Assembly: GCA_051362555.1 (NCBI GenBank)
Contig: CM120641.1
Coordinates: forward strand, 36,772,401-36,836,400
Source of the DNA: Lingula anatina
Lineage: Eukaryota; Animalia; Brachiopoda
DNA: 64,000 bases
Reading direction: 5' to 3'
Position 1 is the stretch's first letter. Each line of letters opens with the position of its first letter. Made by a program: the position numbers and the translations under genes. The notes below the pieces were generated by a model that had not been told where the DNA came from, searched no databases, and saw only the letters and a program-made list of their open reading frames with translations. Below are positions 28,298 to 55,030 of this stretch, in pieces.

Positions 28298-28332
<35 letters not shown>

Positions 28333-28480
28333 CATGAGAATTAGAGTGTGAGCACAATGTTTTTCTCGGATTTCTTTTTCCTTATCTTGCAGTTATCAAA
28401 AATATTTAAAATACGTTTGATTAGCTGCTGCAGTCTGTAATTTTTCCTAAATGAATAAATAAAAACTGTCCAGAAATCTG

Positions 28481-34562: not shown

Positions 34563-34781
34563 TCATATTGTAACTGGCTCCAAACTCCCTTGAAAATTAC
34601 AGTCTCCATGTATAGCTGCAATATGCTTTTGAGCATAATCTCTCCTCATGAAAAGTTTATCACAAACGGGGCACTGGAACCTTCGTCCACCATGTTTTTC
34701 TTTTATGTGCCTGGATAATTCCGTGGGCCTCTTGAAAGAACGGAGTACTGGGCAGTGTGGGCAGACATTGCGCCCTGATGA
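34563..34781 (-). CDS. Alternative terminal exon, 2 C2H2 fingers (not in ORF track)
   Basis: SSGRNVCPHC..HIKEKHGGRRFQCPVC..HIAAIH; selector tgctcacagatgttca 34905-34920. Confidence 0.85.
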   Translation of the reverse strand, partial: SSGRNVCPHCPVLRSFKRPTELSRHIKEKHGGRRFQCPVCDKLFMRRDYAQKHIAAIHGDCNFQGSLEPVTI

Positions 34782-35095
34782 CTACAAAAATAATCACATA
34801 TGTATGAATCTCACAAACTGTTTTGCTGGGGATATCTACCTAGCTATGTCAATACTATATGTAAGCATATAAAAGCAAAGGAAGTGTCCATCTTTTTGGG
34901 GCACTGCTCACAGATGTTCAGATCCCATTTTGCACACCACTGTTCACATTTCGCAAGGGAGAGGTTATTTGTGTTATCAAAAATCTATAGTTTATGCTCA
35001 AGGTTATTTATTTCTTAAAACATTTTACCAATAATAAAATAAAACAAAAGATGTGTACTACCATGTTATAATGCATCAGACATCATTTTATTTTT

Positions 35096-35341
35096 CTAAC
35101 TATTTAAATCTCTAATTCTATATTCACTATTCTCCTTTGAATATAAGGTAACCTCTACATAGTTCTGTGTTTCACCATGCACTTTAATAGTGTGTTCAGC
35201 AGCCATATTCTTTCTCTTGAATAGCTTAAAACATGTGCAACACTGGTATCGACGGCCCTGGTGCATTTCCATTTGGTGGCGATTACGTTCACAGGAGCTC
35301 TTGAAGGTTTTGCCGCAGTCTGGACACTTGGCTAGCGCCAC
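35096..35341 (-). CDS. Alternative terminal exon, 2 C2H2 fingers
   Basis: ttgtag acceptor, VALAKCPDCGKTF..HQMEMH..YQCCTC; only a weak selector, inside the neighbouring exon's 3' end. Confidence 0.82.
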   Translation of the reverse strand: MALAKCPDCGKTFKSSCERNRHQMEMHQGRRYQCCTCFKLFKRKNMAAEHTIKVHGETQNYVEVTLYSKENSEYRIRDLNS

Positions 35342-35403
35342 CTACAAGTGGAGAGGAAGAGTTCCCACATGATAAACACTTAAGTTGAAGATAATAACAT
35401 ATT

Positions 35404-35631
35404 TCAAGACTGCTCTTCAGTGATCACCACTGTATATGGGCCATGTTCTGAGACATTGTGGGCCTCCTTCAAATGAAGACGCGTTAGATGTTTGCGCTTG
35501 AAAATCTTGCCACAAATTGTGCACTTAAACCTACGGCCCATGTGCTTTTCTCTGACATGGCGAAAGTAGTTGCCTTTGTTGAAGCTCTTTTTACACTCTT
35601 CACAATAGTATATTGAGTCCGTTGTATCAAT
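35404..35631 (-). CDS. Alternative terminal exon, 2 C2H2 fingers (not in ORF track)
   Basis: IDTTDSIYYCEEC..HVREKHMGRRFKCTIC..HLKEAH; selector acaggtcttcactggtgt 35711-35728. Confidence 0.85.
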   Translation of the reverse strand: MDTTDSIYYCEECKKSFNKGNYFRHVREKHMGRRFKCTICGKIFKRKHLTRLHLKEAHNVSEHGPYTVVITEEQS

Positions 35632-35972
35632 CTGAAAGTTGCAAAATCACTAGAGTATCTTAAAATTAATGTTAAAAAAGGAAATGGAAATATGTTAGCA
35701 AACAGCTTCAACAGGTCTTCACTGGTGTTCTTTACCGTATATAGAAAATTCTGCAGGACCCGTCTTACTACTTACTATTACTAGACAGCAACAAAGTTAG
35801 AGCATCTTTTTTAAAATTAATTTGAGCTCATTTTGTAGATATTTAATTTGTAGATTATTTCCATCACTTTTATAAGGTTTCCTGATGTTGGAAATTATGT
35901 TTTTCTACTTTCCCGTTCAAAATCTTACAGAAAAAAGTCAAGGTAATCAAGTGTATATATCCTCTTTTAATA

Positions 35973-36218
35973 TCATGGTGTTTTTTCACTTAATTCTGTT
36001 GAAAATGAATGTTCCTGTCCATTTATAGTTTCTATGAGGTCATCCTCATTTCTACAATGTTCGAGCTGTAAATGTTGTTGTGCTTTATGTTTGCGTTTAA
36101 ATTCAACTTGACACAACAGACATTTGAATCTCCGTCCTAAATGTTTTTCTTTCATATGCCTGCTGTATGACTTCATAGACCAATAACTGCGATTACACTC
36201 CACACAAATATATAGGCT
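35973..36218 (-). CDS. Alternative terminal exon, 2 C2H2 fingers
   Basis: tttcag acceptor, SLYICVECNRS..HMKEKH..FKCLLC; selector caggtattcactgg 36308-36321. Confidence 0.85.
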   Translation of the reverse strand, partial: SLYICVECNRSYWSMKSYSRHMKEKHLGRRFKCLLCQVEFKRKHKAQQHLQLEHCRNEDDLIETINGQEHSFSTELSEKTP

Positions 36219-36913
36219 CTGAAATGTGGAACAATGTGGAATGAAATGTCAAATGGCTAACTAGTCTATCTTGAAATGACACTTAGGAGTATTATAACTA
36301 AATTCTCCAGGTATTCACTGGCCAACTCATTGTCACAGCTTTTGAATTAACCTACTCGTTCTTAAAGGAACTCATGGACACGAGTCAAGGTAGCATACCG
36401 AAATATTCTGACATCTAAAAATGGATTTGTAATGTCAAAACAAATACTATTCAGTTCATTTTCACCCATCATTCACCAATTTGGCCAAATGGTTATATAT
36501 ACAACTCAAACAAAATGTATGCTAGTACAAACCCAAACTTAAAATCCATGGTATCTTAAAACTTCCATGATTCCAACCAAAGTAAAACAAAAAATATTTA
36601 ACTGGCTTTATTAAATTATCATTTTTATTACCATGTTATTGGGTTTTATGAAAGTAAAAGTTACATATGATATAAGTATTAATAATAAAACTGAAGAAAG
36701 CTGTAAAGTACTGTATATCAATGTACCTAAATTCTGTCCACAACAAATCTGTCAATCTATTTAAATACAATGAAAATACCACATTTTTACATTTCCAAAT
36801 TATTCAGGCTAAACAGTAGAACGTGGAAAATTTAAAACTTAACAACTTAAAGGAAGTTTAGTAATGTACACACACTATTCTTATCAAGTCATATCTCAAA
36901 AGCAAGGGGATTT

Positions 36914-37180
36914 TCAGTCATAAAATTCTGTAGCAGTCTTGAGCACATCACAATGCTCCCAGACATCATTGTATTGCCTTATATAAATCTTATGCCTGCT
37001 CTGCAAGTGTCTTTCCACGTATTCCAACCTTTTGAACATACGGTTGCAGTGAGAGCACGAGAACCTGCGTCCCATGTGGACTTCTCGTATGTGGCGCACT
37101 TTTGCAGTTGCTGAGAGAAATACCTTTGGGCATTTTGAACACTGGTGGGCTGTTGTCCTCCGTGGTTTTAATGCAAGGGT
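36914..37180 (-). CDS. Alternative terminal exon, 2 C2H2 fingers
   Basis: tttcag acceptor, TLALKPRRTTAHQCSKC..HIREVH..FSCSHC; selector tcacaggtgttca 37403-37415. Confidence 0.85.
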   Translation of the reverse strand, partial: TLALKPRRTTAHQCSKCPKVFLSATAKVRHIREVHMGRRFSCSHCNRMFKRLEYVERHLQSRHKIYIRQYNDVWEHCDVLKTATEFYD

Positions 37181-38311
37181 CTGAAAGTCATTTTGCAAAT
37201 AGTTTCTTTAACTTGTATGCAACTCCTGTTTATATGATCACATCTCGGTTTCTTTCTAAATACCCACTTATCATGAAAATCATGTTTAAAGACTACATGT
37301 AGGTCAACTGATCTGGTTAATATCAGAGAAAAACTGACAAGAAGTTGATCCTGGCTTATAGTTACCCTAGGTAGGCGTTCCATTGAAATATGTTAACTCG
37401 TGTCACAGGTGTTCAAGGTCAAACTGACTTAACAGAACACACTTATTTTTAAAATTAAGTAAAGAAACAAAGAATACAAAAACCAAGCTCTTTGAGTTCC
37501 TTTTTTTTTTTCACAAAACAAAACAAAGCAGTGTATTATTGATTGCACATCATCTTAACATCACACATGCACATACTAGCACGCACAAACATTCTAAACT
37601 TAATAACACAAAAACAGAAGATAGTTTTACTTAAACATCAGAAACGTAACACACAAAATAACACTGCCCTAAAATGGACATACAAATAACATGAGCACCA
37701 CTGTATGTTTATTGCAGCTTTTACATTAAACATTACAGAACACAAACCTTTTTGTAGAATCTGGACAACAAGGATTTAATATCTAATAGCTATGCAAAAA
37801 CACACATATATTATAACAGGCAATTTTTTAAAAGATTAACCTGAACTTTTGTAAACAATGTTCATAAAGCTTTTCAATATTTAATCTCGGAGTAACAAAA
37901 GTTTAGAAGTGTCAAAAAAACTTATAACTCATGTCACATAATATTAAGTCCACTAATTATATTGGAAATATTCTATCAATGTTTAACCAAATTCATCTTC
38001 AAATAGATTGTTTCGATTCAGAATACCTGTATTTAGAGGAGATGGACATATTTTTTTAATGCCAGATCTACTGTTAGGCTGACCCCAAGTAGGGGATTCA
38101 TACCTAGGTCTGCATATGCTTATCTTTAAAAATGATCAAACATGAATAAATATTTCTAGTAACCTACAATGAGCCTTCTTGTAGTGAGCCAAATATGAAA
38201 ACTTTTGGATTTTTCTCAGTGCTCCTATTTGTGTTTTTTCTCACAGGGTTGAAAACTGCCTTCAATGTCTTTGTCACCACCAGTTTTTTACCATAAAATA
38301 TGACAGATGTA

Positions 38312-38578
38312 TCATCTTATTGTCTGCTGCTGGGGGGCATCTGGTACAGTGTATTCAAGACTGGTATGTTCTAATGCCTGTCTGGCTGTCACTTTAATAG
38401 AATGACAACGTTCCAAATGCTTCACAAAATATTCTAATCTGGTTAATTTTTCACTGCAATGCCTACAGCTAAAACGCTGCTTGAGGTGAACTTCTCGATT
38501 GTGCCGCCTCAGGGCATGCTGATAGGAAAATGTCTTCTGACAAGTTGTACATTTATAAGTTCCTCTGTCATTGAATCT
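38312..38578 (-). CDS. Alternative terminal exon, 2 C2H2 fingers (not in ORF track)
   Basis: RFNDRGTYKCTTC..HNREVHLKQRFSCRHC..HLERCH; selector tagtgttcacaggt 38758-38771. Confidence 0.85.
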   Translation of the reverse strand, partial: RFNDRGTYKCTTCQKTFSYQHALRRHNREVHLKQRFSCRHCSEKLTRLEYFVKHLERCHSIKVTARQALEHTSLEYTVPDAPQQQTIR

Positions 38579-38809
38579 CTACAAAATAAAATTGAACATG
38601 TTGGATGCTGACTTGCTGAGGAACCAGTGGTTGTTCATTTTATCTCAAACAGTGCAGGTCTTAACAGAAACTCAAATACGTTTCTAAAATGGTTGCAAAG
38701 AAGTGCTGGCTGCATTTCAAATTAAGTAGCCCTTCAGTTTAATCACAAGGTATTCCATAGTGTTCACAGGTTGTGTTTTGATAAAAGCTGTCACTGACAC
38801 TGTATATTC

Positions 38810-39017
38810 TAAAGAACTTTTTGAAAGCTACTGTGCCAAGCACTGTGCCATGATGGTGCTTTTTCAAGTGTTCACAAAATGTATAAGTTTGGTGTGCATT
38901 ACTGCAAGTGAATCTCAATTACGGTACTTCAAAGCTTTTTGGAAGGAGGATTCTACACAATGAAATGAAGTTTCTTCAAATATCTTTATTAACTGAATGC
39001 AAGCCTTTACTGGCCAT
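38810..39017 (-). pseudogene. Probable degenerate zinc-finger pseudo-exon
   Basis: atacag acceptor gives MASKGLHSVNKDI*; downstream remnant LRFTCSNAHQTYTFCEHLKKHH resembles the second finger of the flanking exons. Confidence 0.45.
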
Positions 39018-39269
39018 CTGTATAGGGGGTTTGAATTTGGTATATCTCTCTTTCTTTAAAAGAAATTTAAAAGAAAATATAAATTTAAATTGCAGAAATG
39101 TATCACTACCAAGGGGTACTTAAGCAATCCACTCTGACACAAAGGTGCACGAAGAGATGAATTCCACAAATTAGTATGCAGAAGAGATGTTCCTGATAAG
39201 CTTTGCCATTACCAATGACAAAAACCCCCATGACTGATTATCTGTATTTCTCAGTGGTACACATATATT

Positions 39270-39512
39270 CTAGGTTGTACCTTCTCCCAAAATCACAACC
39301 TCCATATGATTTAGTGCCTCCTTGTAGTTGTGCACCTGGATTCCATGTTGCACTTTCAGGTGCTTGTAGAAATACTCTGGCCTTGTCTGCAGCTGATCGC
39401 AATACAGGCACTGAAATCTCCGCCCCAAATGCACCTCTCTGTTATGCCTCCGCAAAGCATCGGAGTTAAAAGTTTTGTTGCAGATTTTACAAGGAAGCCG
39501 TTGCTGCTGTCC
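39270..39512 (-). CDS. Alternative terminal exon, 2 C2H2 fingers
   Basis: GQQQRLPCKIC..HNREVHLGRRFQCLYC; selector tcacaggtattcaatggttgtcac 39681-39704. Confidence 0.85.
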   Translation of the reverse strand, partial: GQQQRLPCKICNKTFNSDALRRHNREVHLGRRFQCLYCDQLQTRPEYFYKHLKVQHGIQVHNYKEALNHMEVVILGEGTT

Positions 39513-39738
39513 CTGCATGTGTACAAAGTATAGAAGACTTCATTACTTGGAAAACAAGTTCACACACGAGGATCGTACATGCTTATGCAGATCCCAGGAA
39601 GTAGATTTGAACTCAAAATGAGAAACTCAAGAAGTAGAAAAAAGTTATGAACACAGACATAACTATCAATAGTCATATTGTCACAGGTATTCAATGGTTG
39701 TCACTTTTATATATGAAAATAAAAATAACTTAAAAAAA

Positions 39739-40173
39739 TTACATTGTTCCCTTATCTTTTGAGGCATTATTTTGTTCTGTCTGATTTCCCTTGGTGATTT
39801 CATGGGGATTTGTGTCTGTTTGTGATTGATCCAACTCCTCCCCAGTAATTAGGGCCCCACTGGTTCCACCTGCCCCCCTAGGATCCCCATCACCCTCCCC
39901 CAAATCAGATTTTGAACTTTGCGACATAACAGACTGGATGTAACACCTTGTCCCACGCTTGTGTTTCAACACATGATCTTTTCTGTAAAACAGTTTACCA
40001 CAAATGTCACAGGCAAAAGTGCGCTGCAAGTGAATATTCATGTGGCGCTGGAGATGATGGCGATGAATGAAACTCTTGGGACAAAGAGTGCACCTATGCC
40101 TTGGCCTGGGGTCTAATAGGACTGGCCCCCGAGGAAATACTACGTCCAATGCCCATCCCTCATAACCAGAGTA
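39739..40173 (-). CDS. Alternative terminal exon, 2 zinc fingers with C-terminal tail
   Basis: ttttag acceptor, YSGYEGWALDV..HRCTLC..HMNIH..FACDIC; selector caggtgctcacag 40310-40322. Confidence 0.85.
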   Translation of the reverse strand, partial: YSGYEGWALDVVFPRGPVLLDPRPRHRCTLCPKSFIHRHHLQRHMNIHLQRTFACDICGKLFYRKDHVLKHKRGTRCYIQSVMSQSSKSDLGEGDGDPRGAGGTSGALITGEELDQSQTDTNPHEITKGNQTEQNNASKDKGTM

Positions 40174-40814
40174 CTAAAAATAACAAAAGGGAGTCAGGGA
40201 CTATAAATCTATGAGCAAGGTTATTTTAAAAAAACAAAAAAACAAAAAAAAAAAAAAAGAAAAAAGAAAAAAAAAAAGCTGACATACTTCTAAGCTTCAA
40301 TATAAATGGCAGGTGCTCACAGATTTTAAACATTTTATTTGTAATCAAAGAACATAAGTCACACATAAAAATATTGCAATTAAGTATTTTCCCCTGTCCT
40401 ATTTAAGATTTAAAGAAGACACAAGACCATTTGAAGCATAAGAAAATTTATGTCCACACCTATATTTAAGAATATTGGCCCCAAATATAATATTGAATCA
40501 AAAGGCAACAGAGATGTACCTGTATCAATATAAAAAGAAATATCATAAAAGAGAGACAAAAAAGCTAAATTCTCCTCATCAGGGTTAATGCATAAATCTA
40601 CTCGGGAGATATTCCAAGAAAACATTACTGATAATGCAATACCAGAACCTCCAGGTTGATAAAGAGATGGTTTCTACACATTCTATACAGGTTTACAGTG
40701 GTTTGTATCCATCATCAATCCATCATTAAAATTAAGGAATTACACTGTTATGTAATACAATTTATTTAGTTTTCAATTACATATCTTAATCTTCAGTTGA
40801 TAGTTACACCGAAC

Positions 40815-41050
40815 ACCATCGGTCTAAGTGGATCAATCCAACTCAGCACTGAGCAGGGATCCTTGCTGAGTGCAATCAGCTTAACGCACCTCCTCCTGGC
40901 CTAATGTAGATAACACAAAAGCTGGTGATTCTGCGAATATGTTGGTTAAGCTGGTTGAACTAAGCAAGAGTCCCTGCAGAGTTGGGTCGATCTAGGTAAA
41001 CTGATGGGTGTCTATAGGCACGGGGTCTAGGACTGCTAAGAATCCCTACG
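40815..41050. mobile_element. Palindromic MITE-like element (family B)
   Basis: Inverted arms ccatc..gatcaatccaactc..gcagggatccttgct / agcaagagtccctgc..gagttgggtcgatc..gatgg. Confidence 0.65.
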
Positions 41051-41086
41051 TACTGGTGGGCTAGCACTGTAAATATGCCTTGCACA

Positions 41087-41374
41087 TTAGTCATCTGATT
41101 CCCATTCCCAGTTCTGTTTATTGGTGTCCATCTTCTTGCAACTTTCCTTATGTACCCTAGTTACATGGCGCACCAGGTTGTCTTTTCTATAAAATGCACG
41201 GCCACAGTTTTCACATATGTATTTCTGCTGTTTGTGGACATTCATGTGGCGAGAGAGAATGGTTTGCTGTGCAAAATGTTTCCCACAGTGAACACACTGG
41301 TACCTAACACGACCACCAATATTTATACAAAGCACCGATCCCTTTTTTCTGCCCCTTTTGCTCCAAAACCAAGT
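41087..41374 (-). CDS. Alternative terminal exon, 2 C2H2 fingers
   Basis: cttcag acceptor, TWFWSK..YQCVHC..HMNVH..YICENC; selector gtgctcaca..caggtgaca 41516-41541. Confidence 0.85.
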   Translation of the reverse strand, partial: TWFWSKRGRKKGSVLCINIGGRVRYQCVHCGKHFAQQTILSRHMNVHKQQKYICENCGRAFYRKDNLVRHVTRVHKESCKKMDTNKQNWEWESDD

Positions 41375-41431
41375 CTGAAGTGGGAATAAAATATATTGCA
41401 CTGAGTGTGAAATGAAGCAGCCTAGGCAGGT

Positions 41432-41476
<45 letters not shown>

Positions 41477-41901
41477 GAGTGGCAAATCAATCTTTTTAAA
41501 ATTCAAAAACTGCCTGTGCTCACAAAAAGTTTCAGGTGACAAGAGTTATTTTATTATGTTAACACTCATTACATAAGTACTGCAGGGGACCAGTTTCTTT
41601 TTTAAGGGGGATTTGGGAGTGAAAATAATCATCAATATTAAGAGGATGTCGTTTTTTTTTTATTATTTACGGTCTTCCTTTCACAGAAGAAGATACTCCA
41701 AAAATTTCATTTATTTTCCCATTTCCCTATATCTTCATCTGATTCGATTCAATAAAATATAGACAATAAGAACATTAGGTTAATTTATTTGAAAGAAATT
41801 AACAATAAACATCAGTTTAAAGATTACTTATATATTTATTTTGTATCAATTAAATATAGCAGCTTACAAATATAAAGGTTGAAACTGGGTAACAAGTCAC
41901 A

Positions 41902-42117
41902 TTATAAGGTTTCACATCTTTTTTTGTGTATTTTCATATGTCCTATCAAGACATCTGAGCGCAAAAACCCTTTTTGGCAAATGTCACACTTATAGATCTT
42001 TTTTTGTAGATGTATATTGACATGCCTCATTAAATGTCCCTTTTGAGCAAAATTTTTAGGGCAGTGGGGACAACAGTATCTTCCAGAGATAGAACTTGCG
42101 GATTCCTCTTGTGCAAC
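41902..42117 (-). CDS. Alternative terminal exon, 2 C2H2 fingers (not in ORF track)
   Basis: VAQEESASSISGRYCCPHC..HVNIH..YKCDIC..HMKIH; selector taggtgttcaccaggt 42412-42427. Confidence 0.85.
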   Translation of the reverse strand, partial: VAQEESASSISGRYCCPHCPKNFAQKGHLMRHVNIHLQKKIYKCDICQKGFLRSDVLIGHMKIHKKRCETL

Positions 42118-42429
42118 CTAATACAAATAGCAAATAGTGACTTGAAGAGCTCTACAAATAACTATTCAATTAAGAACTAGTACTTCAAGAACAACGTTTT
42201 TATTATTTCCAGAACTTGCCCTTATGAAATTTCAAAATTTAAGTTACACTGAAAATGCTACTGCTTGCAGATCTGCAACCAAATGGCATGCTGGATACCC
42301 AAGTGCCCTACTTCCACTTGTCACTCAAAACAATATGACCTTTCACCTGAGCATAACTCATTAAATTTAAAACTGATCAAACTGAGAAGATTAGAGTACA
42401 ATTCTCCCCTTTAGGTGTTCACCAGGTCC

Positions 42430-42651
42430 TTAGTGTGACCCTTTTGGGGTAGGAAAAATATTTTTGTGCTTATATCTCTGGTGGCTGAGTAAAGTGTCTG
42501 TCCGGGAAAATGTCTTCCCACAGAGATAACATGGATAGGTTTTCTCCAGGTGAACATTCATATGCCTGGTTAAGTGACTTTTCTGACCAAAACTTTTCCC
42601 ACAATAAGAACAGACGTGTCTTCTAGCATTTAATATTCCGTCTTCAGTTAC
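42430..42651 (-). CDS. Alternative terminal exon, 2 C2H2 fingers
   Basis: VTEDGILNARRHVCSYC..HMNVH..YPCYLC; selector tagtgcttcacaggtgt 42749-42765. Confidence 0.87.
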   Translation of the reverse strand, partial: VTEDGILNARRHVCSYCGKSFGQKSHLTRHMNVHLEKTYPCYLCGKTFSRTDTLLSHQRYKHKNIFPTPKGSH

Positions 42652-43491
42652 CTGACAATGAATAATATTCACTATAATTTCACTACATTTAACCTTTTGA
42701 GGCAAGATTAAAATGTTTTTGATCAAATATAAATATTTTGCTTAAAACTAGTGCTTCACAGGTGTAAGTCCTTCATACATAAAATGCTTCATATTTAAAG
42801 AAACTGCTTTTGATAGAAAATTCACCCACCCAACTCTGATTCTGTAAGTATACAAGCTATTACTAAATGCCAATACAAACATAACTAAAATATTATTCAA
42901 CAATTGTAATCACAAAGGTGAAAAAACAAGTCCCTATAGAAGACCTGAAAAACAAAAGTACATTTCCTTTACCTCCAGAGGTCAGTAATAAAAAAATTCA
43001 CTTTGCTTTTAATTCAATCTTAATACATGTGGAGAGACCCTTCAGTCCCCAGAACTGTGGTAACATAACTAAATAAATTAACAATAACAAAAGACTGTCC
43101 AAAAATGTATCCTCAAAGTAATTATAGAGATTTATCTCCAAACAAATATCCTTATGGCTGGGTAAGTGACATTCTGAGCAAGATCATTCATCAAAGAACG
43201 ACAGGTATTACAAGTTATACAGCAAATTTCACAAATATACAGAAAAAAGTTTCTATCACATTTTGCCAAAAAAAAAAAAAAAAAAAGAAATCTTTTCATT
43301 GTAGAGTAACTGTTTTGTAACACAAAGCTTTGTAAACTTAAACTATTTCAGTACCATTGTCCAAGAACTGTTACAAAAATCCCTAAACCACATAAGTCAT
43401 GTGCTTCAAATCAAATGCAACATATCCCACGCACAAAATTATTAATTGTGAAAGAAGAAGCATTTTCTTAAGTTGATCCTGAAAATGGTTC

Positions 43492-43713
43492 TCAGATGAA
43501 CCCCTTGGCTCCGAGGACCTCATTTCTGTGTTTTCCCCTCTGGTGACTTAACAAGTTATCTGTTCTGTTAAAACTTTTCCCACAGAAGGAGCATGGGTAG
43601 GTCTTAGCAAGGTGAACATTCATGTGTCTGTTTAAGTGACATTTCTGCACAAAACTTTTCCCACAAATGGAACAGATGTGTCGCTTGCAGCTTGAATTTT
43701 CTTCTCCAGCCAC
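43492..43713 (-). CDS. Alternative terminal exon, 2 C2H2 fingers (close paralog of 42430)
   Basis: VAGEENSSCKRHICSIC..HMNVH..YPCSFC; selector ctgtggtccacaggtgtt 43774-43791. Confidence 0.87.
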   Translation of the reverse strand: MAGEENSSCKRHICSICGKSFVQKCHLNRHMNVHLAKTYPCSFCGKSFNRTDNLLSHQRGKHRNEVLGAKGFI

Positions 43714-44002
43714 CTAGTAACAATTTTTTTTCAATGTATCTCGACAGTATGTTTTATATTATTTTAAGGCTGTCTGTGGTCCACAGGTGTTGGCTTTTCA
43801 GTCACAAATTCAAGAAAAATGCATTAGATTTCTTTGATTGTTTCAACGATGAAAATCCAAAATTTGAGTTTCCTTTTTTTCTAATGGACGAGGATATGAA
43901 AAATCTTTAGTTTTACAACAATAAGGAAGCTTTACAACTATTTTCTGTGAAAAATTTTTCTTAGAATGATTTCCTAGAAAAATTACTTTAACCATGCATT
44001 AT

Positions 44003-44185
44003 TTACTGGACATGGTTCACTTTCACATGGGACTTCAGATTGTCCTTTCTATTAAACACCTTCCCACAATGTTCACATGGGAACAACTCTTGGAAGTCGC
44101 CATGTAGCTGCATATGGCGTTTCAAATTACGAGGAGAACTGATCCACTTATGACAGAGATGACACTCCACCTTGCCTTGCTTGTT
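44003..44185 (-). CDS. Alternative terminal exon, 2 C2H2 fingers (not in ORF track)
   Basis: NKQGKVECHLC..HMQLH..FPCEHC..HVKVNH; selector tgttcattggtatc 44228-44241. Confidence 0.85.
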   Translation of the reverse strand, partial: NKQGKVECHLCHKWISSPRNLKRHMQLHGDFQELFPCEHCGKVFNRKDNLKSHVKVNHVQ

Positions 44186-45089
44186 CTGAAAAAGGTGACC
44201 AGGATTTAGGATAAACTATGGTACAATTGTTCATTGGTATCCACTGTAAGTTTTTTGCATTTACATTACGCTGCACACAGGTAGAGGACTGTTGTCGACG
44301 GACCACCAAATGCCTTCACAAGCGTGTCCAAACAATTTTTTTGTCAAATCTCTTTCATTACAATTTGAAACAGCCGGGTTGGCAATCTTGCACAATTGCA
44401 CCACTCAGCTGTCAACATCAGAGATTGAACACAACTGGTGTGCAATTAACACTCAATTTGTCTCAAAACATATCTTTAGCCATAGAGCCTCTCTTGTTTG
44501 CAATATTTACCCAAATCACTCTAGCTAGCAACTTATTAAAATTTTCAAAGTAAATATTTGGTTTCATTAGGAAAATGAAACTTACTATCATGGTCTTTCT
44601 CACGTCTCCTTAGATCATCACTCTTGAAATTTTCTCCAAAATATTTACACACTTGCCCATCATTACCTCAGACAAGGTTAGTTCATTTGTTCACAGCATT
44701 ATGCAAAAGTAATGGGCAATTTTCATGAAGTTTTCAAGGAAAGATCACAAATTTGTACAATTAATTGATTAAATAATTAATGTTTAATTGTTACTTATTT
44801 GTTTTGGCAGAGGTCTGCCCTGAGCGCCTTTCTAGTTGTACATTTTTTTATTTCATGTTAAAATTTTTTGTGAAAGGGTATCCACATATTCTACAAAGGA
44901 ACCTCCGAGTCTGGAATAAGTAAAATATTCTCTTTTTGTGTTTTTATTGACATGGATGCACCAAATTTCCAGCAGTATAAAGCAATTGTAAAACATACCA
45001 ACAGGGAGACTTCAGAAATTGTATCACAAAGAAAACAGAACTTGAAAAAGTCATATCCAGACGAAATCTGCAGAGCTGCCATTTACCAC

Positions 45090-45302
45090 CTAACTCCTCT
45101 GGTTTGCTACAAATTTTTTCTTCAAGCAAGCAATCATGTGTCTTTTTAAGTTATCCCCGCGATTAAATGTCCTGCTACACTGAGAACAAGTCAGCAGAGT
45201 CTGAGTAGTGTGGTTTTTTACGTGCCGTTTCATGTTACTGGGACAGGTGAATGCAACATCACAAATATTGCACCTGTATTCTGGCTTTCCATGCTGTGAC
45301 AC
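45090..45302 (-). CDS. Alternative terminal exon, 2 zinc fingers
   Basis: VSQHGKPEYRCNIC..HVKNH..LTCSQC; selector tagtgctcccagtg 45452-45465. Confidence 0.85.
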   Translation of the reverse strand: MSQHGKPEYRCNICDVAFTCPSNMKRHVKNHTTQTLLTCSQCSRTFNRGDNLKRHMIACLKKKFVANQRS

Positions 45303-45642
45303 CTGAGATACAAAACAGTGCAAAGGTAGAAAATGGATTAAAATAAAACAAAGACAAATGTGCGACGGGGAAAAACTCCAATTTTAATTTTTTGTTGTTC
45401 TTCTTCTACATTATTTTTGTATCGTGAGTCAACTTCTGCTTGCCTGTTTGCTAGTGCTCCCAGTGATTTTAAGTGTCAGCTTCAACATATCCCATCACTT
45501 CCATGACATTATAGCTTTTCATTGTAAAACAAGTTTAAAAATAATTTTCAATGACACTTATTGTTAACATCGTAACAGATGGTCAATAAATAAATTTTCT
45601 CCTGCTGCAGTCCAAACCACAAATTTTGATTTAAAAAAAAAA

Positions 45643-45903
45643 TTAGGTCCACTTTATACTAGAATGATACATGGAATGCTCGTTTTTATGAGCCTTCATA
45701 TGCTGTGTCAGCACATCACTCCTATAGAAAACCTTCCCACATGTACGGCACTCATACGTCCTTTTCCAGTGAATATTCATATGGCGATATAAGTTACTTT
45801 TATTGACAAAACTCTTGTTGCAAGCCAAGCACCAGTGTTTTGAACCCACTGTTACCCATGTTGCGGAACCTGCAGCTGAGCCTTTTGTTTCTTTTCTCAT
45901 CAT
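45643..45903 (-). CDS. Alternative terminal exon, 2 C2H2 fingers
   Basis: ttttag acceptor, MMRKETK..HWCLAC..HMNIH..YECRTC; selector ggtgttca 46063-46070. Confidence 0.85.
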   Translation of the reverse strand: MMRKETKGSAAGSATWVTVGSKHWCLACNKSFVNKSNLYRHMNIHWKRTYECRTCGKVFYRSDVLTQHMKAHKNEHSMYHSSIKWT

Positions 45904-46163
45904 CTAAAAGGAGCAAATGGACAGCAACTTTGGAACTTGATCAAAGATGGGAGCATAAACAGAGATTCCAAACATACTATCATGCAGTTAAAGTTTGGAA
46001 AGTGATATTTCTGAGTAGGTTTTTTTTATTGGAGGGGCATCAGTACGTGCTATTTTAGACATGGTGTTCAGAATTAAAGATTTCTTTATCCAAGCAGCCA
46101 CCTGCCAAACCACTTTTCTATAATTAAACAGTTTCCTTTTTTTTAAAAGCATTTTGGCAGTTA

Positions 46164-46409
46164 TCACGACATGGTGAGATTTTTCTGATGACTTTTTACA
46201 TGAGCATTCATGACATCTCTTCTATGAAATGCTGCCCCACATTTTAAGCAAACATGTTTTCTTGGTTCGTGGGAGTGCCGATGTCTTATCAAACTGCGCC
46301 GATGTACAAAACATCTTCCACATTCCTCACACTCATGTTTTGTCTCCTCTCTGCCTTGAAACAAATCCAGCCATGTTGAACTGGACAAAGGGGTATCAAA
46401 ACCAGGTAC
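46164..46409 (-). CDS. Alternative terminal exon, 2 C2H2 fingers
   Basis: acatag acceptor, VPGFDTPLSS..HECEEC..HRHSH..HVCLKC; selector ctgtggtgctca 46543-46554. Confidence 0.8.
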   Translation of the reverse strand, partial: VPGFDTPLSSSTWLDLFQGREETKHECEECGRCFVHRRSLIRHRHSHEPRKHVCLKCGAAFHRRDVMNAHVKSHQKNLTMS

Positions 46410-46993
46410 CTATGTAATAAACATTAATTCACTACAGATTCTTGTGTACTTAGTTACTCAAATGAGAGACTTCTGCAAAAACAGCACTAAATATTGTATG
46501 TAAATTTGTACTTAAACTAAGAGATATTACTGCATGGTATTCCTGTGGTGCTCATCAAGAATAACTTGTGTCCCAAAAAAATTAATTTGTAAGTATGAAA
46601 ACCAGATTATAGAAACCATTAAATTCCTTTATTTAACTTATATGAAATTATAATAATGGGCATATAAGTAGGGAAGAAGCATACTTGTACACAGGATTAA
46701 TACAGTTTCAAGGTTCTACTGTAATGTGCAGTATGGCCTTCAAGGGTACTATTTGTATGTAGTATCATTCTATTATAAATAAACATATTAACATCCTAGC
46801 AGAATATATATATATATTTTTTTGAATGATTGTATCCATGAGACCATTGTATCCATGTAAAATATTGCTGCCACGCAACACCAGCATTATCCATAGCTGA
46901 GCACATCCCTCTCTTATGAAAAAGTCATGATACGTCTTAACTTATAAGGTATCTAGGCTACAATTTTCCAAGGCAATATTCTTTAGTCAAGCA

Positions 46994-47173
46994 TTAAAAT
47001 GTGGCTAGGTGTGCTCTTCTTTTATGAAGAAGCAATGTATCATCCCTGCTAAACAGCTTATCACAGTAGTCGCACCGAAACCGGATTTCTGTGTGTATCA
47101 ACTTATGTCTGTTCAGGTTCCTCTGCTGGGTGAAGCCTGATCTACAAATCTCACAGAAATACACCTTAGGGGT
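46994..47173 (-). CDS. Alternative terminal exon, 2 C2H2 fingers
   Basis: tttcag acceptor, TPKVYFCEIC..HKLIH..FRCDYC; selector-like ctgcaggt..tgctcac 47237-47260. Confidence 0.83.
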   Translation of the reverse strand, partial: TPKVYFCEICRSGFTQQRNLNRHKLIHTEIRFRCDYCDKLFSRDDTLLLHKRRAHLATF

Positions 47174-47283
47174 CTGAAATAAAGATGGGCAACTTATCTC
47201 ATTATTTTTTTCTTTGGAAAAAAAAAATACTGATGCCTGCAGGTAGTAGTACATGCTCACGACTAAGATAAAGTAGTTGAATT

Positions 47284-47619
47284 CTATTGAGTAGTTTCAC
47301 TGTCAGCAGATGCAGGACGCATTACAGCAGACGTGGGGACAACAAGCTTTTTTCCTGTTAGTGGCATCCCAGCAGCTTTCTGGTGAACGTGACGAGTGTG
47401 CTCAAGAAGATAGTCGCTTCGTTTAAAAGCTTTGCCACAGGTGAGGCAGACAAATCGCCTATGAGTATGCACATTCATGTGTCTTCGCAAGTTGGTTAAA
47501 AGAGTAAAACTCTTGTGACATATTGTACATGGAAACCTCTTCTGCTGTTGAAGATCCACACCCATCTTAATTGGTGTTGCTTTTCTGTAAAGTGAGCCCA
47601 TTACTCTTGCTCTGGGTAG
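47284..47619 (-). CDS. Alternative terminal exon, 2 C2H2 fingers
   Basis: tcctag acceptor, LPRARVMG..FPCTIC..HMNVH..FVCLTC; selector ctgtagtgcacaggtat 47707-47723. Confidence 0.82.
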   Translation of the reverse strand, partial: LPRARVMGSLYRKATPIKMGVDLQQQKRFPCTICHKSFTLLTNLRRHMNVHTHRRFVCLTCGKAFKRSDYLLEHTRHVHQKAAGMPLTGKKLVVPTSAVMRPASADSETTQ

Positions 47620-48033
47620 CTAGGATTAATACAAGAAAAATATCTTACTAAGACTGCCCTCATTCAGATTCTTGTTAATTCAAATGAAGCAAGCACATAT
47701 ACAAGTCTGTAGTGCACAGGTATAGATAATGGGGAAAATCCCAATATTTGGAACCATGATGCTGATGCTAAATTAGTATACATATGTTAAATTAATGATA
47801 CTGGATGTCTTTTTTCTACAGATGTTCTTGAAAGTGTTATCAATATACAATATATATGATCATTTTTGGTTTGTGTACAATCACATCCTTGGGGAGTAAT
47901 TTTTCACCAAATTTCAAATGCTAAACCCTACATGAAAACCAATCCATCTTTATACTTTTTCACCAAAATAATCTACACCTTAAATTCCTTAATGCACATT
48001 TGAATCTTGAAATGAACAAAAAATGCTACCATC

Positions 48034-48306
48034 TCACTCTGGTATTTGACATTCCCTATTTGATTCACTAACATGTACATCCTTATGGCAGTTTCTAAAA
48101 TGATTTTTCAAACTGTCACTTCTAGAAAATTCACTTTTGCAGACAGTACAGTGCCAGGTTTTATTGCGATGAACATTCATGTGCCTTGATAAATTGTTGA
48201 CATGTTTGTAACTCTTCAGACACAATGGGCATTGGTATTTCCCTACAATTTCCATATAATATCGGTGGTTTCCTTCACTGTCTGTATAATGATTTCTTCC
48301 ATTACT
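48034..48306 (-). CDS. Alternative terminal exon, 2 C2H2 fingers
   Basis: ccacag acceptor, SNGRNHY..YQCPLC..HMNVH..WHCTVC; short selector cacaggtg 48419-48426. Confidence 0.85.
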   Translation of the reverse strand, partial: SNGRNHYTDSEGNHRYYMEIVGKYQCPLCLKSYKHVNNLSRHMNVHRNKTWHCTVCKSEFSRSDSLKNHFRNCHKDVHVSESNRECQIPE

Positions 48307-48629
48307 CTGTGGAAAAATAAAAGATATGAAGAAACAAAGGCATATATGCATTCTACTTTTGAATATTCTTAGTATTTATTGCAAGATTCATATCTACTTT
48401 TTCTACAATCCAAGCCCCCACAGGTGGTAGTACTTTTTTGCCACTTTAAAGTGTTGTTTTTTGTCAAAATTTATGATGTATTCCACATTTCATGCAGGTA
48501 AGTTAACAGTGACAGTCAAGAAATCCAGCTACTCTTTTAAAAGTCTTGGCTTATGCTGCTGAAATCATTAGCATTTTTCTTGTGACAGTATAGTTTTTGT
48601 ATGGATTTTATGTTGTTAATACAGCTCCT

Positions 48630-48842
48630 TCACTTCTTTTTCCGTTTGTGGACATACTTCATGTGATTATCCTTCCTTTGCAATATAAAAGCTTGACAAA
48701 TTTCACAGAAGAAAGATTTGTGCTTGTGAACTGTGTTTATATGGCGCAGAAGGTCATGCTTGAAATTAAATTCCTTGAGGCACATTGCACATGCAGGTTT
48801 TTTAGATGAATCTCCTGAGCTACACACTACACTGTGTTCTTC
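48630..48842 (-). CDS. Alternative terminal exon, C2H2 finger plus atypical short finger
   Basis: ctcaag acceptor, EEHSVVCSSG..ACAMC..HINTVH..FCEICQAFILQRKDNHMKYVH; selector gctcactggtgggtcac 48953-48969. Confidence 0.8.
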   Translation of the reverse strand, partial: EEHSVVCSSGDSSKKPACAMCLKEFNFKHDLLRHINTVHKHKSFFCEICQAFILQRKDNHMKYVHKRKKK

Positions 48843-48954
48843 CTTGAGAAAATAAAATGAAATACTTCCATTAAACTACATTTGTCACCGTCATAAATGG
48901 TCTCCTTTTTTTTTTTTTTTACACCACCAGCAAAAGATGCGGGTCACATAACGC

Positions 48955-49245
48955 TCACTGGTGGGTCACTTTTCCTGTTACTCGTTTCCTATTGTGGGCA
49001 AACTTCATGTGGTTATCTTTTCTCTGTAGTACAAATGCCTGACAAAGGTGGCAATAGTGGGGTTTTCTTTTATGCACCACATCCACATGTCTTGTCAACG
49101 AAGATTTACAAACAAATTTTTTCTTGCACTGGTTACAAGCTAATTTTTTCGTCAAGTTTGATTTTTCAGCATTTTGGAGGAGAGAGCCCCCTGGATAAGG
49201 TGACACACCTGGTCCCCACCTTAACTCCTCAGAAACAGCATGCAC
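48955..49245 (-). CDS. Alternative terminal exon, C2H2 finger plus atypical short finger
   Basis: caccag acceptor, VHAVSEE..LACNQC..HVDVVH..YCHLCQAFVLQRKDNHMKFAH; selector ctcacaactgttcaatggt 49367-49385. Confidence 0.82.
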   Translation of the reverse strand: MHAVSEELRWGPGVSPYPGGSLLQNAEKSNLTKKLACNQCKKKFVCKSSLTRHVDVVHKRKPHYCHLCQAFVLQRKDNHMKFAHNRKRVTGKVTHQ

Positions 49246-49632
49246 CTGGTGGGTAAGAAAAGGGAAAATATCCATGTCCTGGCACAACATTAAGCACCAA
49301 AGAAACTAAAACTACTTTTTCTTTTGGGAAAAAAAGAATGTATTCTAGGGGCTTTGAATAAGGAAACTCACAACTGTTCAATGGTTTCGCTTATATTTCC
49401 CTTCTGTCATCTAATCTTGTCACAAAGCATAATGCAGCATGTACATATCATAATTTATATATTAAGTGAATAAAATATCAATAAAAAAACTTAAATATTT
49501 GTACATACTGACAAAAACTATAAACAATTCATGCCTTAAGAAAATTCGACAAAAAGTATCAAACTATCCTGACCACAGAGTTTACACAGCATCCAAGCAC
49601 AGAGCTCGTGTTCTTTTTCGGATTCTATTATT

Positions 49633-49896
49633 CTACTGTGGAACATCAGGCTTTTTAGTTGGTTTTATCTTATGAAATGATTTCATATGATTATCTCTTC
49701 TTTGTAAAATAAAGGCATCACAGAGATAACAAAAGAAAGTACGACTCCTATGAATAGTATTCTTATGCCGTGACAAACTTGTCCTGTCACTAAGTTCTTT
49801 ATTACATATTTCACACATCCATTTCTTAGTATCAGACAGAGCCTCTTTCGTGGGGGTTGGGGTTGACAAGAACATTTCACTGTTCATCCCAAGGGC
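49633..49896 (-). CDS. Most proximal ZF alternative terminal exon, C2H2 finger plus atypical short finger
   Basis: atgtag acceptor, ALGMNSE..WMCEIC..HKNTIH..FCYLCDAFILQRRDNHMKSFH; short selector ttcactggt 49964-49972. Confidence 0.83.
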   Translation of the reverse strand, partial: ALGMNSEMFLSTPTPTKEALSDTKKWMCEICNKELSDRTSLSRHKNTIHRSRTFFCYLCDAFILQRRDNHMKSFHKIKPTKKPDVPQ

Positions 49897-51106: not shown

Positions 51107-51150
51107 GCCAAAATTTTGTGACACCAGTGAACACCTGTGAGCACCTACAG
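51107..51150 (-). promoter_or_regulatory. Putative intronic RNA docking site for mutually exclusive terminal-exon choice
   Basis: + strand gccaaaattttgtgacaccagtgaacacctgtgagcacctacag (RNA: CUGUAGGUGCUCACAGGUGUUCACUGGUGUCACAAAAUUUUGGC). Single copy, ~1.2 kb after the common donor, reverse-complementary to motifs upstream of ~30 alternative exons. Confidence 0.8.
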
Positions 51151-52385
51151 ACTGTACATGCAAGCATCAGCTGCCTTAAATATGGAGGGCAGCTACTAGG
51201 CTTGGGGGTCTAAGAAATCTGTCAGACACGAAACAAATATATTTAAATATATATACAGATACATATATTAATACTATAGATTTACTTCTATATTCATTAC
51301 TCTCAGTTGTCACAAATATTTAAACATTATTTTTTAAATTTCAAAATATTAATGGCAAGCTGTTAACTTTTAATTCAAAAATTTCAAACCATTTAAAAAT
51401 TAAATCAATTGACAATTTAAACCAAGTTTCAAAAGATCAGCCAATCCAAAGCCCATTTTCTGAAAAGTCTATGTCTGTTATCTGTCTATTAATTTGCTGC
51501 TGTAAGTTTTTTTTTTAAATCTTGTTAATGACATACTTGCACAGTTTCTCTTAAATGAAGGGGTCACCCCAGGTGGAGTTTAATTTTTTCAGAAACAAAA
51601 GAAAAAGCAAAAGGTAAACAGTTCACTTCATACGGGCTGCATCGCTTATCTTTTGAGAGGACAGATTTCCTAAACCCCAAGCCAGGTTAAGGGAAAGAAC
51701 AGAAACAGAGAGAATGTTCATATTAAAGTTAGAAACTGCGAGCTCAATAACCATCCCATTTTTCTTAAAAAAAAAAAAAAAACATTCCTTTAAAATAATG
51801 TCAACCTGTTAAGACATGATAACTTGACATTGGAAATGTAAGACAATTTGATATCCAAGTGCCGAAAATAGTACACTGCAGTTTCCAGCTTTGAATTCAT
51901 TTTTTTTTTTTTCAAAATACTAGGCAAATTTGATCTCAACTTTACAATTCCAAATAAATACCAAGGTTTTTCTGTCATTCTTTTTTTTTTTTTTTTGTCA
52001 AATGTGCCTAGATATAGCAATACCCATCCATTCATCCAGGCACACTAGAAATTTATACTGAAGTGAGGATGGATTCTTCATGGATGGATACAATTCAATG
52101 TAAAAGAACAAGCAGAAGCAAAGTGAGATTTCTTTCAATACAGTGAAGTTGTCATTTATTTCTCAAAAACTTTCGATAATGTATAAATGCAAATGACACA
52201 CATCTTTTAGGCTATAACAATGAATTTATTGAAATGGGAATTCACCAGGACTACTTTTGAGGACAGCTCAGCATTTTGCAAAATTCCACATGCTGGATTG
52301 AACCTAGTTCTTGCACAACCAGAAATCTCTCCCACTTTGGCTTGTATCCTGAGTAAAATATTGGTACAAAAAGACTGGTACTTAC

Positions 52386-53446
52386 ATTTCTTGGTTTGGC
52401 AGGAGACTGTGTTTGAGAACTGCTGCCTTCACCAGCACTGTGATCAGGAGATTGCCAGTTGGGAATTAAAGAGTTATTTGGATCTGAGGGGAATGATAAA
52501 GAGTCTGATGCCTGACTGGGACCAGCACCTTCATGTTCTTCATTTGCTATAGAGAAAAAGTCTTGTATGAATGGAGTGGATTGTGCTTGATCATTGTCCG
52601 AGTTAAATGAAGACACCACCCCCGGTGCTATAAATGGCCCAGGAGGAATATCTTGACTTAAACTTTGGTCCCCCAAACTTTGGTGAGATTCACCGTCGTC
52701 TTTGTCAGAAAGTTCGACTACATCTTCCTCTTTTTTAATTTCTATTATCACATCTTTGGCATCAAAGGGGTTTGTGTTCATGTTGTCAGTATGACTGTTT
52801 GATTCTTGGGTATTTGAGCAATCAGATTCAGGAACAAGCTTTGGTCTTTTGGAAGCTGATGGGTCCATCACATGAGGGGAGCCTGAAGCTGCACTTGGAG
52901 CCCCAGAAGCTGCACTTGGCTCAGATCTTTTCCCAGCAACATTTCTGTACAACTGTCTTGGAGAAATTGTCTTTTGTGGTGCTACATCATCTTTTTCTGG
53001 TCTTCGACCAGAGTGAAATGTAGTCAGTTTTGTATGAGTGTTTCTATATTCTACTGAGGAAGGAGAAGTGAGATCTGGCAATGAAACGTGATCACCAATG
53101 TGGGGAATTGCCTGTAATGTAGGGTCATTAGTTTTTTCTTGAGAAACATTTCTTGGTTCTGAAATATATAGACTAGTAGAATCTTGAGCACCTTTTCTAT
53201 GAGTAGCACCATCATTTCTGTTTAAAAAAGTCTGCCTGTCAGGAAGCATGTGTCTTTGATGAGGAGAGATTGCTGCAGGTGGTGGTGGTTCAGTTCCACC
53301 CCCTGCATCCCCTTGATAAACTTTGAAAACTTTCATTATCTGAGCCACAAACCTCCCATCTTCATATCCAATTTCCAAATTTGAAAGTTCAAGTGAAACT
53401 ACATTTTCTTGTTTGCTTTTCACTTCAATACTGTGTTGAAATTCAC
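52386..53446 (-). CDS. Common (constant) exon 2 of the multi-isoform ZF locus; long disordered Ser/Pro-rich region
   Basis: tctttag acceptor (phase 1); ORF 52251-53465; ends SPAKPRN|gtaagt, a phase-0 donor at 52385 compatible with all downstream exons. Confidence 0.85.
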
Positions 53447-53669: not shown

Positions 53670-53778
53670 CTTCTGTATTTGTTGCCACAAATTTGCACAG
53701 CTGGCTTTCGTTTAATGCAGCACATGTTTTAACCAGGTCCAGTGGCAAGTGTATGTCAAGCTTGGAAATCTTCAACAT
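53670..53778 (-). CDS. Common coding exon 1 (ATG at 53778): MLKISKLDIHLPLDLVKTCAALNESQLCKFVATNTE
   Basis: ttttcag acceptor before 53786, ATG 8 nt inside the exon, phase-1 donor g|gtatga matching the next exon. Confidence 0.75.
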
Positions 53779-53797
53779 ACTTATTTCTGAAAATTGA

Positions 53798-54399: not shown

Positions 54400-55030
54400 A
54401 TGTAATCATATGCCGATTAGAGCGCCACCACTAAATGGCGTCATGTGTCAATCATGCCGGTTTTTCCCCCAGAAGGAAGTCGCCATTTTTCAACCGAAAG
54501 ACAAGAACAAAGAAAAATAGCAAAACTGATGTACTGTCGCCTTATTCTAAGAGCTGCGAGTGAAAGGAATAGTTTTGTTAAATCTTAAGTAAAAATGATG
54601 TCTTCACATCGGTTAATTTTAAAACGGATACTTATGGGTTGGCGTGAGATCTTTTGTCCGTACAGCCCAAACCCCAAACAAACTGCAGCCAGCCGGATGC
54701 TGCACAAACACAACGATTACAGCAACCAGTTGCGTAAATGTCAATCGATTTTCATGTAACTAGCATCCAGAGAAAGCCATGATCATACCCATACCTTTTA
54801 AGTGGCGAAACACAGGCAATTTACGGTGAATTTTTTCAAATTTCACCAGTCGACAATGGTTCCGTGATCCTCCGCATTCCGTGTCTAGTCGAAACCTGTG
54901 ACGTCAAGAACCGGTGCGATATCATGTGACCTGCACCAGCTGCCTGGCAAATCCGGTGGTCGATGGGCGGTACCATCTTGGCAATACTGCATAAATTATG
55001 CCGATGCTGGTGGCAAATGGTAGAAAAATA
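54400..55030. promoter_or_regulatory. CpG-enriched promoter/5'UTR region of the ZF locus (possibly bidirectional)
   Basis: High CpG density, YY1-like CGCCATTTT (54481), CRE TGACGTCA (~54899), candidate minus-strand donor aag|gtatgg near 54794. Confidence 0.55.

Follow-up and report, generated by a model that had tools for sequence, protein, structure and literature searches.

Even for lola and mod(mdg4) it is a puzzle how a single splice donor bypasses many poly(A) signals and settles on one last exon out of dozens. The same question is raised by a Lingula anatina gene on the minus strand of the window (the whole stretch of 64 kb analysed here), whose orientation is given by stranded RNA reads and GT..AG joints. 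The locus can be read as a compact code, in which a single element, about 50 nt long, is complemented by 18-29 tags. We consider it rather probable that pairing in cis between this docking element and the tags, or selectors, picks one last exon, as in fly Dscam1.

The gene and its alternative last exons

Four RNA runs, chosen by species label, were mapped on positions 35001-55000; three of them are stranded, and the libraries are of the poly(A) type and of low depth. The minus strand is the RNA sense strand in all three stranded runs. The common part of the gene contains the following features.

54795..54888, minus strand: likely first exon, non-coding (read-end pile at 54887-54888; depth 60-96 at 54802 and 54831)
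54794, minus strand: predicted donor of exon 54795..54888
53670..53786, minus strand: common exon with start codon 53778 and the first half of an 82-aa domain (translation, paralogues)
52386..53446, minus strand: last common exon (depth 125-146 in runs X1 and X2; nine joints into the array)

The 5' end of the transcript is likely near 54888. The joint 53670-53446 is present in all four runs, and the shared donor is the phase-0 site 52386/52385 at the end of the last common exon. The best protein match of exon 53446-52386 is Lingula anatina LOC106156780 (NCBI name; 98% across 52% of the query), and 19 of the 21 matches carry the Lingula anatina name. The first 82 residues (53778-53310, minus strand) are conserved over several Lingula loci. 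A profile of this domain, run against 1.84 billion representatives, found 11 proteins with E <=0.001, 10 of these with E <=1e-10; they are Lingula records and a few proteins without a name. The domain had no Pfam match and no PDB sequence match below E 0.15, its predicted fold has a mean pLDDT of 41.5, too low for use, and a protein atlas search gave no usable match. No BTB family was seen in Pfam scans or precomputed domains, and the gene thus does not belong to the BTB-zinc-finger proteins, which have an N-terminal BTB. At least five Lingula loci (proteins P0002, P0009, P0017, P0022, P0053) form a family characterised by the 82-aa domain; most of them are annotated with many alternative C-termini (C2H2 pairs, Myb/SANT-like and others). 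The isoform names of one paralogue, LOC106170880, go up to X36.

In a six-frame scan, strict matches to C2H2 fingers were observed exclusively on the minus strand, mostly in pairs, at 23.2-49.9 kb. Pfam zf-C2H2 families were found in all four finger ORFs among the 14 ORFs scanned, in one case below the curated cut-off. The 36 candidate acceptors (31 zinc-finger, 5 other) comprise 12 read-supported sites and 24 that are predicted and hand-picked; acceptors 47173, 28702 and 24514 were taken by hand over the top-scoring site, 24514 from the reads.

23217..49896, minus strand: 31 alternative last exons encoding C2H2 pairs, or three fingers in one case (scans, Pfam, RNA)
Array acceptors, minus strand, first third: 49896, 49245, 48842, 48306, 47619, 47173, 46409, 45903, 45302, 44185, 43713
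Array acceptors, minus strand, second third: 42651, 42117, 41374, 40173, 39512, 38578, 37180, 36218, 35631, 35341, 34781
Array acceptors, minus strand, last third: 33800, 32464, 29780, 28702, 27907, 26831, 26022, 24514, 23553
12279..21997, minus strand: five distal non-zinc-finger endings, acceptors 21997, 20253, 18442, 15813, 12711

Candidate acceptors 21968 (out of frame, within exon 21997) and 16492 (neither domain nor homologue seen) were dropped, as was 14996 as a last exon, since it is an internal exon of the 15813 isoform.

Donor 52386 is joined to 9 of the 21 candidate acceptors inside 35001-55000 by 87 reads summed over the four runs: 49896 (19 reads), 35341 (18), 39512 (14), 40173 (8), 43713 (7), 45903 (6), 35631 (6), 47619 (5) and 42651 (4). 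Joints are listed from at least three reads, so that the other 12 of the 21 acceptors may still be in use below this limit. No joints between array exons are among those listed in 35-55 kb. Compared by eye, loose ends at donor 52386 (at least 179 reads) agree with the first letters of exons 26831, 24514 and 15813, and one mixed loose-end row resembles exon 33800. The two largest rows among those listed (43 and 83 reads, agreement 0.8) correspond to exon 15813, 36.6 kb from the donor, and the distal endings are thus well used. The distal acceptors in 12-35 kb are placed by loose ends, NCBI models and homology. Strand, common donor and the use of at least 12 acceptors are directly established, and the original prediction of one common donor serving many terminal exons is borne out by the RNA reads. 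A constant region is followed by many alternative 3' exons with variable C-terminal domains, which is the arrangement of lola and mod(mdg4).

In 28 of 36 cases the segment from the stop codon to the next acceptor contains a canonical poly(A) hexamer, although A/T-rich DNA would yield some of these anyway. Pile-ups of read 3' ends were observed at 42306 and 45599.

Three endings, 21997 (E 1e-33), 20253 (E 7e-20) and 18442, resemble isoform tails of the paralogues LOC106157998/LOC106150702. The four non-zinc-finger endings 12279-12711, 18025-18442, 19839-20253 and 21538-21997 (minus strand, 137-152 aa) had no Pfam match above the cut-off; a winged-helix-like fold is our guess. Endings 12711 and 18442 look like duplicates, and acceptor 12711 was placed by this likeness, seen by eye. 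NCBI model P0001 also joins 52386 to 15813 and then continues through exons 15280, 14996 and 14513; the apparently most used ending is multi-exonic, spanning 15813-14418 (minus strand) with its exons at these four positions. By eye, its last part resembles a BEN domain; Pfam gave no BEN match on this ending.

The putative docking element and its candidate selectors

The original prediction, made from the sequence alone, placed a single docking site at 51107-51150. The element as delimited here equals this segment plus about 6 nt on its 5' side, and sits in the intron after the last common exon, 1.2 kb downstream of donor 52386.

51107..51156, minus strand: docking element, three imperfect tandem units of about 10 nt (top inverted hub; per-base use profile)
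51121..51147, minus strand: dock core, covered by at least 10 of 29 selector alignments (51128-51137 by at least 20 of 29)
51169..51194, minus strand: small predicted hairpin of 7 bp directly 5' of the dock (pair probability 0.98)
51199..51683, minus strand: predicted nested stem, LCR-like or MITE (duplex -39.2 kcal/mol)

The core falls inside the segment first proposed; the element reaches 51156, and its A/U-rich end 51107-51120 serves few exons only. The tags are staggered over approximately 51107-51156. They overlap on 51128-51137, so that their pairings would compete; selectors overlapping on one dock are the Dscam1-type arrangement. Along the dock, no gradient with position was seen (rho -0.20, p 0.31). 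Shuffled sequences fold as well as the dock region itself (z -0.5), part of which is predicted to pair with itself. Rfam found no family over 49900-52400 (best E 0.09, below gathering). Sense coverage, which is low, runs across the dock and beyond it. The idea of a recursive splice site at this element was rejected, as there is no joint at this position and no pyrimidine tract before it.

The closing arms of the predicted stem, 51660-51683 and 51199-51223, form a helix of 24 bp that includes, on the sense strand, two G-U pairs. Its pair probability is 1.0 and 0.77, and it ends about 40 nt before the dock. Among the 159 sense-strand helices of the window that span at most 700 nt, its ungapped 19 bp rank second in strength. 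Folding z-scores of 51199-51683 are -4.1 on the sense and -4.5 on the antisense strand (30 shuffles), compared with -1.2 to +1.5 for four neighbouring segments (-1.2 and -0.3 for those in 51690-52385). The last LCR stem of Dscam1 directly precedes the docking site, and a single stem is enough in Daphnia (PMC3535345). One possibility is that 51199-51683 is a small transposon (MITE), because of its antisense z-score and the presence of other long inverted repeats. Such repeats, with nested arms and similar to small non-autonomous transposons, were observed at 62344-62990, 56603-56761 and 20410-20623.

The 13 positions first listed as examples of selectors all hold an exact plus-strand match of 8-13 nt to the minus strand of 51107-51150. 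As the gene is on the minus strand, these inverted matches can indeed pair within the pre-mRNA, as had been claimed. The distance of the tags from the acceptors, given originally as mostly about 45-300 nt, was measured as 38-298 nt with a median of 118 nt (29 of 36 zones, those scoring at least 10.5).

Exact 10-mers of the dock's first 32 nt occur within 11-51 kb at 14 merged sites in inverted and one in direct orientation, with 0 vs 0 outside. At k=8 the counts are 42 vs 13 within 11-51 kb and 11 vs 11 outside. The stray matches pointed out earlier outside the array, near 4576 and 60858, are present, and since the outside counts at k=8 are equal, they are background 8-mers.

Because the dock had been picked after the fact, an unbiased hub scan was performed, in which every 32-nt window of the 64 kb was compared by inverted k-mers with the 36 zones 20-350 nt upstream of the acceptors. 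The dock ranks first among inverted hubs, with 29 zones at k=8 (next window 19), 21 at k=9 (11) and 15 at k=10 (5). The best window in direct orientation reaches 20, 12 and 7 zones, respectively, which is below the dock; hence the dock matches the tags better than the tags match each other. The k-mer rank is inflated, as the dock itself consists of three similar units.

Whole-zone RNAduplex with the 44-mer was noisy due to large loops (16 of 36 zones below the background 5th percentile; run with 28750 for 28702), and compact windows and ungapped scorers were therefore used. A symmetric alignment score of at least 11 is reached in 18 of 36 zones, compared with 2/36 in direct orientation, 2/36 on the exon side, 2/68 outside and 2/68 in a fourth control. 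A wobble-aware score of at least 12 is reached in 22 of 36 zones (4/36 antisense, 6/136 outside), and a compact duplex of <=-24 kcal/mol in 29 of 36 (0/36 antisense, 9/36 exon side, 16/70 outside); 28 of these 29 zones belong to zinc-finger exons. The three scorers agree on the enrichment upstream of acceptors over background, by which the original prediction was to be judged, and differ on coverage. Tagging of nearly every exon, as originally proposed, was too strong a statement; with the three scorers, the share is 18, 22 or 29 of 36. Complementarity and the statistics on it are directly established, and the dock-selector layout is real and statistically strong, on a last-exon array verified by RNA.

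Candidate selectors are given below with their alignment score or exact match and the compact duplex energy, where available.

49367..49388, minus strand: selector for acceptor 49245 (score 14; -29.4 kcal/mol)
42413..42422, minus strand: selector for acceptor 42117 (exact 10-mer)
40311..40327, minus strand: selector for RNA-used acceptor 40173 (score 13; -29.8)
39681..39698, minus strand: selector for RNA-used acceptor 39512 (score 14; -34.9)
37403..37415, minus strand: selector for acceptor 37180 (exact 13-mer; -31.1)
36308..36321, minus strand: selector for acceptor 36218 (score 12; -32.7)
35711..35728, minus strand: selector for RNA-used acceptor 35631, may also serve 35341 (score 16; -33.9)
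34905..34920, minus strand: selector for acceptor 34781 (score 14; -31.6)
33989..34002, minus strand: selector for acceptor 33800 (score 12; -35.3)
29939..29949, minus strand: selector for acceptor 29780, complementary to the dock's 5' unit (exact 11-mer; -27.1)
29000..29011, minus strand: selector for acceptor 28702 (exact 12-mer; -30.6)
28010..28026, minus strand: selector for acceptor 27907 (score 15; -31.9)
26925..26943, minus strand: selector for acceptor 26831, which has RNA loose ends (score 13; -30.3)
24806..24822, minus strand: selector for acceptor 24514, which has RNA loose ends (score 15; -31.2)
23623..23633, minus strand: selector for acceptor 23553 (exact 11-mer; compact duplex only -21.9)
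15883..15898, minus strand: possible selector for acceptor 15813, its match being confined to the dock's A/U-rich 3' end (score 12; other scorer 13.1)

Seven of the 36 acceptors, 45903, 35341, 23553, 21997, 20253, 18442 and 12711, have weak tags. Two of them are used in the RNA, 45903 (-18.8) and 35341 (-23.8, 18 reads). Exon use does not simply follow pairing strength, since 45903, 35341 and 15813 are used despite tags that are weak or pair with the A/U end. Tag strength is uncorrelated with the strength of the pyrimidine tract (rho 0.07) or with distance (rho -0.21, p 0.26).

The selector 42413-42422 sits inside the 3' UTR of the 42651 isoform (stop codon at 42429, read ends at 42306), and RNA reads carry a variant at the adjoining position 42412. 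A helix of 13 bp is possible between 28648-28660, in the coding part of exon 28702, and 28016-28028, in the selector of exon 27907; it may be a chance match or a balancer-like competitor of the dock.

Probable pairing in cis and the alternatives to it

As in Dscam1, the array is joined one exon at a time, and one dock near the common exon faces many complementary selectors. Judged by every conclusive sequence test, the locus is like Dscam1 and pip. In the reading that we favour, the dock would pair within the same pre-mRNA with one selector, 40-300 nt before most acceptors. The intervening exons, up to about 35 kb, would be looped out and donor 52386 brought to one ending. Only one selector at a time would occupy the shared dock core. 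The stem 51199-51683 may shorten the distance from donor to dock or act as an activator, similar to the Dscam1 LCR, and each isoform would be cleaved and polyadenylated at its own poly(A) site. The products would be transcription factors with a constant N-terminal domain and a swappable DNA-binding tip. The likely origin of such an array is tandem duplication of an exon together with one stem arm, a process modelled in PMC6071210. Of the Dscam1-like reading as first proposed, the gene structure, the single top hub, the staggered tags and their retention have been confirmed, whereas the pairing and its action in cis are what we infer from them. As to the loop, put originally at up to about 38 kb, reads support splicing over 36.6 kb; the figure of 38 kb hangs on the predicted exon 12711.

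The complementarity statistics are blind to whether the partners lie on one transcript or on two. The architecture of the locus matches that of mod(mdg4) and lola, which are trans-spliced (PMC13490949), pairing-aided trans-splicing has been demonstrated for sDscam (PMC9258826), and the distal exons are well used in spite of many proximal poly(A) signals. All this is compatible with the common exons and the dock being on one transcript and the variable exons coming from internal promoters or the other allele, with pairing aiding the trans-splicing. On the other hand, no opposite-strand exon was found here, whereas mod(mdg4) has exons on both strands, and its 31 isoforms are made in trans without complementary sequences; pairing was sought there and rejected, while lola mixes cis and trans (PMC13490949). 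Moreover, there is no extra strong U1-type motif between 52400 and 49897, the stranded poly(A)-type runs of low depth have a single RNA 5'-end pile listed in 35-55 kb (54887-54888), and sense coverage, at this low depth, does not drop after the dock. Taken with these observations, trans-splicing appears unlikely.

The dock consists of three imperfect 10-nt units, which makes a short binding motif a fair rival of pairing. The tags would then be sites of a protein, such as a splicing regulator or a DNA-binding factor, and the dock a non-pairing inverted triple copy. Indeed, the central 10-mer of the dock is found with at most two mismatches in 18 of the 36 zones, and the core resembles E-box and T-box sites. 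Of the mismatches, 11 of 27 in tags are G-U compatible, against 13 of 88 in alignments arising by chance (p 0.006); when transitions are compared, which is the fair test, wobble gives no significant signal (G>A 10/96 vs C>T 4/67, p 0.24). However, the flanks of the central-unit matches, 4 nt on each side, equal those of the dock at 63 of 144 positions (25% expected, p 6e-7), so that the tags copy the context of the dock and cross its unit junctions. Some tags use non-overlapping parts of the dock, their orientation is strictly opposite to it, and the dock is located where a docking site is expected. No matches occur outside the array at k >=10. We regard a protein motif as quite improbable.

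Finally, the tags could be neutral relics copied with exon duplications and the dock a chance inverted copy, the choice being left to splice-site strength, poly(A) competition and polymerase speed. The most-joined exons in 35-55 kb, 49896 and 35341, carry modest tags and have the highest acceptor scores, by a matrix partly trained on them. Against this, the exon proteins have a median identity of 36% and a maximum of 67% (443 of 465 pairs, aligned over at least 35 aa), and the alternative exons are, judged by this divergence, old duplicates. With the tag removed, the upstream introns resemble each other no more than reverse-complement controls do (11.43 vs 11.41, p 0.39). Exons diverged and introns fallen to background likeness, with the tags retained, show that the tags have been selectively kept: they have outlived the surrounding sequence, which implies selection. 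In addition, the dock is the unique top hub. A neutral relic is thus very improbable, and both it and the protein motif fit worse than pairing.

Known systems and neighbouring observations

In the Dscam1 exon 6 cluster the dock likewise lies in the intron after the common exon, with staggered selectors upstream of the acceptors (PMC3535345, PMC8791459). A stem directly precedes it, as the predicted stem 51199-51683 does here, and in neither case are proximal exons favoured. Dscam1 encodes an arthropod adhesion receptor and the cluster consists of internal exons, whereas here last exons of a brachiopod nuclear protein are involved, presumably each with its own 3' end. The span is just over 10 kb in Dscam1 and approximately 35-37 kb in Lingula. 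Docking is established in Dscam1, whereas in Lingula it is predicted from the sequence. Docking is also known in 14-3-3, srp, RIC-3, Branchiostoma MRP, dynamin 1 and CD55, and at the 3' regions of PGRP-LC, CG42235 and pip (PMC8791459).

The last three genes likewise have a dock after the common exon and selectors before 3' cassettes, coupled to 3'-end formation. They have 3, 5-7 and 10 cassettes, respectively, over up to about 17.6 kb (reached by the 10 cassettes of pip), compared with about 36 endings over 37-40 kb in Lingula. Compensatory rescue has been reported for 3' cassettes, and pairing may be less common at 3' regions, according to PMC6191721. The term 'zinc finger' is absent from the text of that paper, and no 3' case is described there as a zinc-finger array.

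Both lola and mod(mdg4) combine a constant N-terminal half with one of 20-31 alternative 3' exons encoding a variable C-terminal domain (PMC13490949); they have a BTB domain, in contrast to the non-BTB 82-aa domain of the Lingula gene. In serpent, a GATA zinc-finger factor, RNA pairing also picks zinc-finger-related exons (PMC4691838), in a small internal cluster (4.1, 4.2) with bidirectional pairing, unlike the approximately 36 last exons with one upstream dock considered here. The statement that no such mechanism was described for a zinc-finger exon array must be narrowed accordingly, since the serpent pairings are published, and within the literature covered holds for large dock-run arrays of zinc-finger last exons. 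In mite sDscam-beta one kind of pairing acts within or between transcripts, as it might here; that system differs in having a 5' variable region with alternative promoters, and encodes adhesion molecules (PMC9258826). The literature covered, the main texts of mostly open papers, yielded nothing on this gene family, nor on any dock in charge of a large array of zinc-finger last exons. The words 'zinc finger', 'splicing' and 'C2H2' are all absent from the main text of the Lingula genome paper (PMC4595640), and the text of PMC12962786 had no match to the terms sought. An alignment-based metagenome scan for a related locus turned up 192 matches to the pattern, none of them a relative.

If the pairing is true, docking extends to brachiopods and to large arrays of transcription-factor exons, with a span beyond the known 3' cases compared here. 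Together with the paralogues of the same many-endings layout, it would point to convergent evolution of gene layout and RNA switch. A bolder version, possible and in our view doubtful, is that a lola-like generator of transcription-factor isoforms arose independently in brachiopods, based on a lineage-specific N-terminal domain other than BTB. It would be run by a complete Dscam1-style RNA machine (stem, dock and about 30 competing selectors, over 35-38 kb and dozens of poly(A) sites) that chooses a single DNA-binding tip for each mRNA, present also at the paralogues and possibly providing cell-to-cell variation in transcription-factor specificity.

Some further observations concern the RNA reads and the rest of the window. 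Run X7 on 35001-55000 has many fixed letter differences from the window, most of its reads being 95-99% alike, which is not the case for X1, X2 and X4; X7 probably comes from a divergent population or a related species. Given deep enough intronic reads, it could yield covariation data. At 40866-40900, plus-strand RNA reads of X1 and X2 cover a segment of 35 nt, with loose ends to its left and right; they probably stem from another transcript or a repeat that matches this short segment. Region 1-10470 of the window contains, on the plus strand, coding exons with laminin G, followed by a frame of 1298 aa with nine FN3 repeats and a hydrophobic stretch, and then by WD40 repeats in the same direction, an unusual neurexin-like/FN3/WD40 succession.
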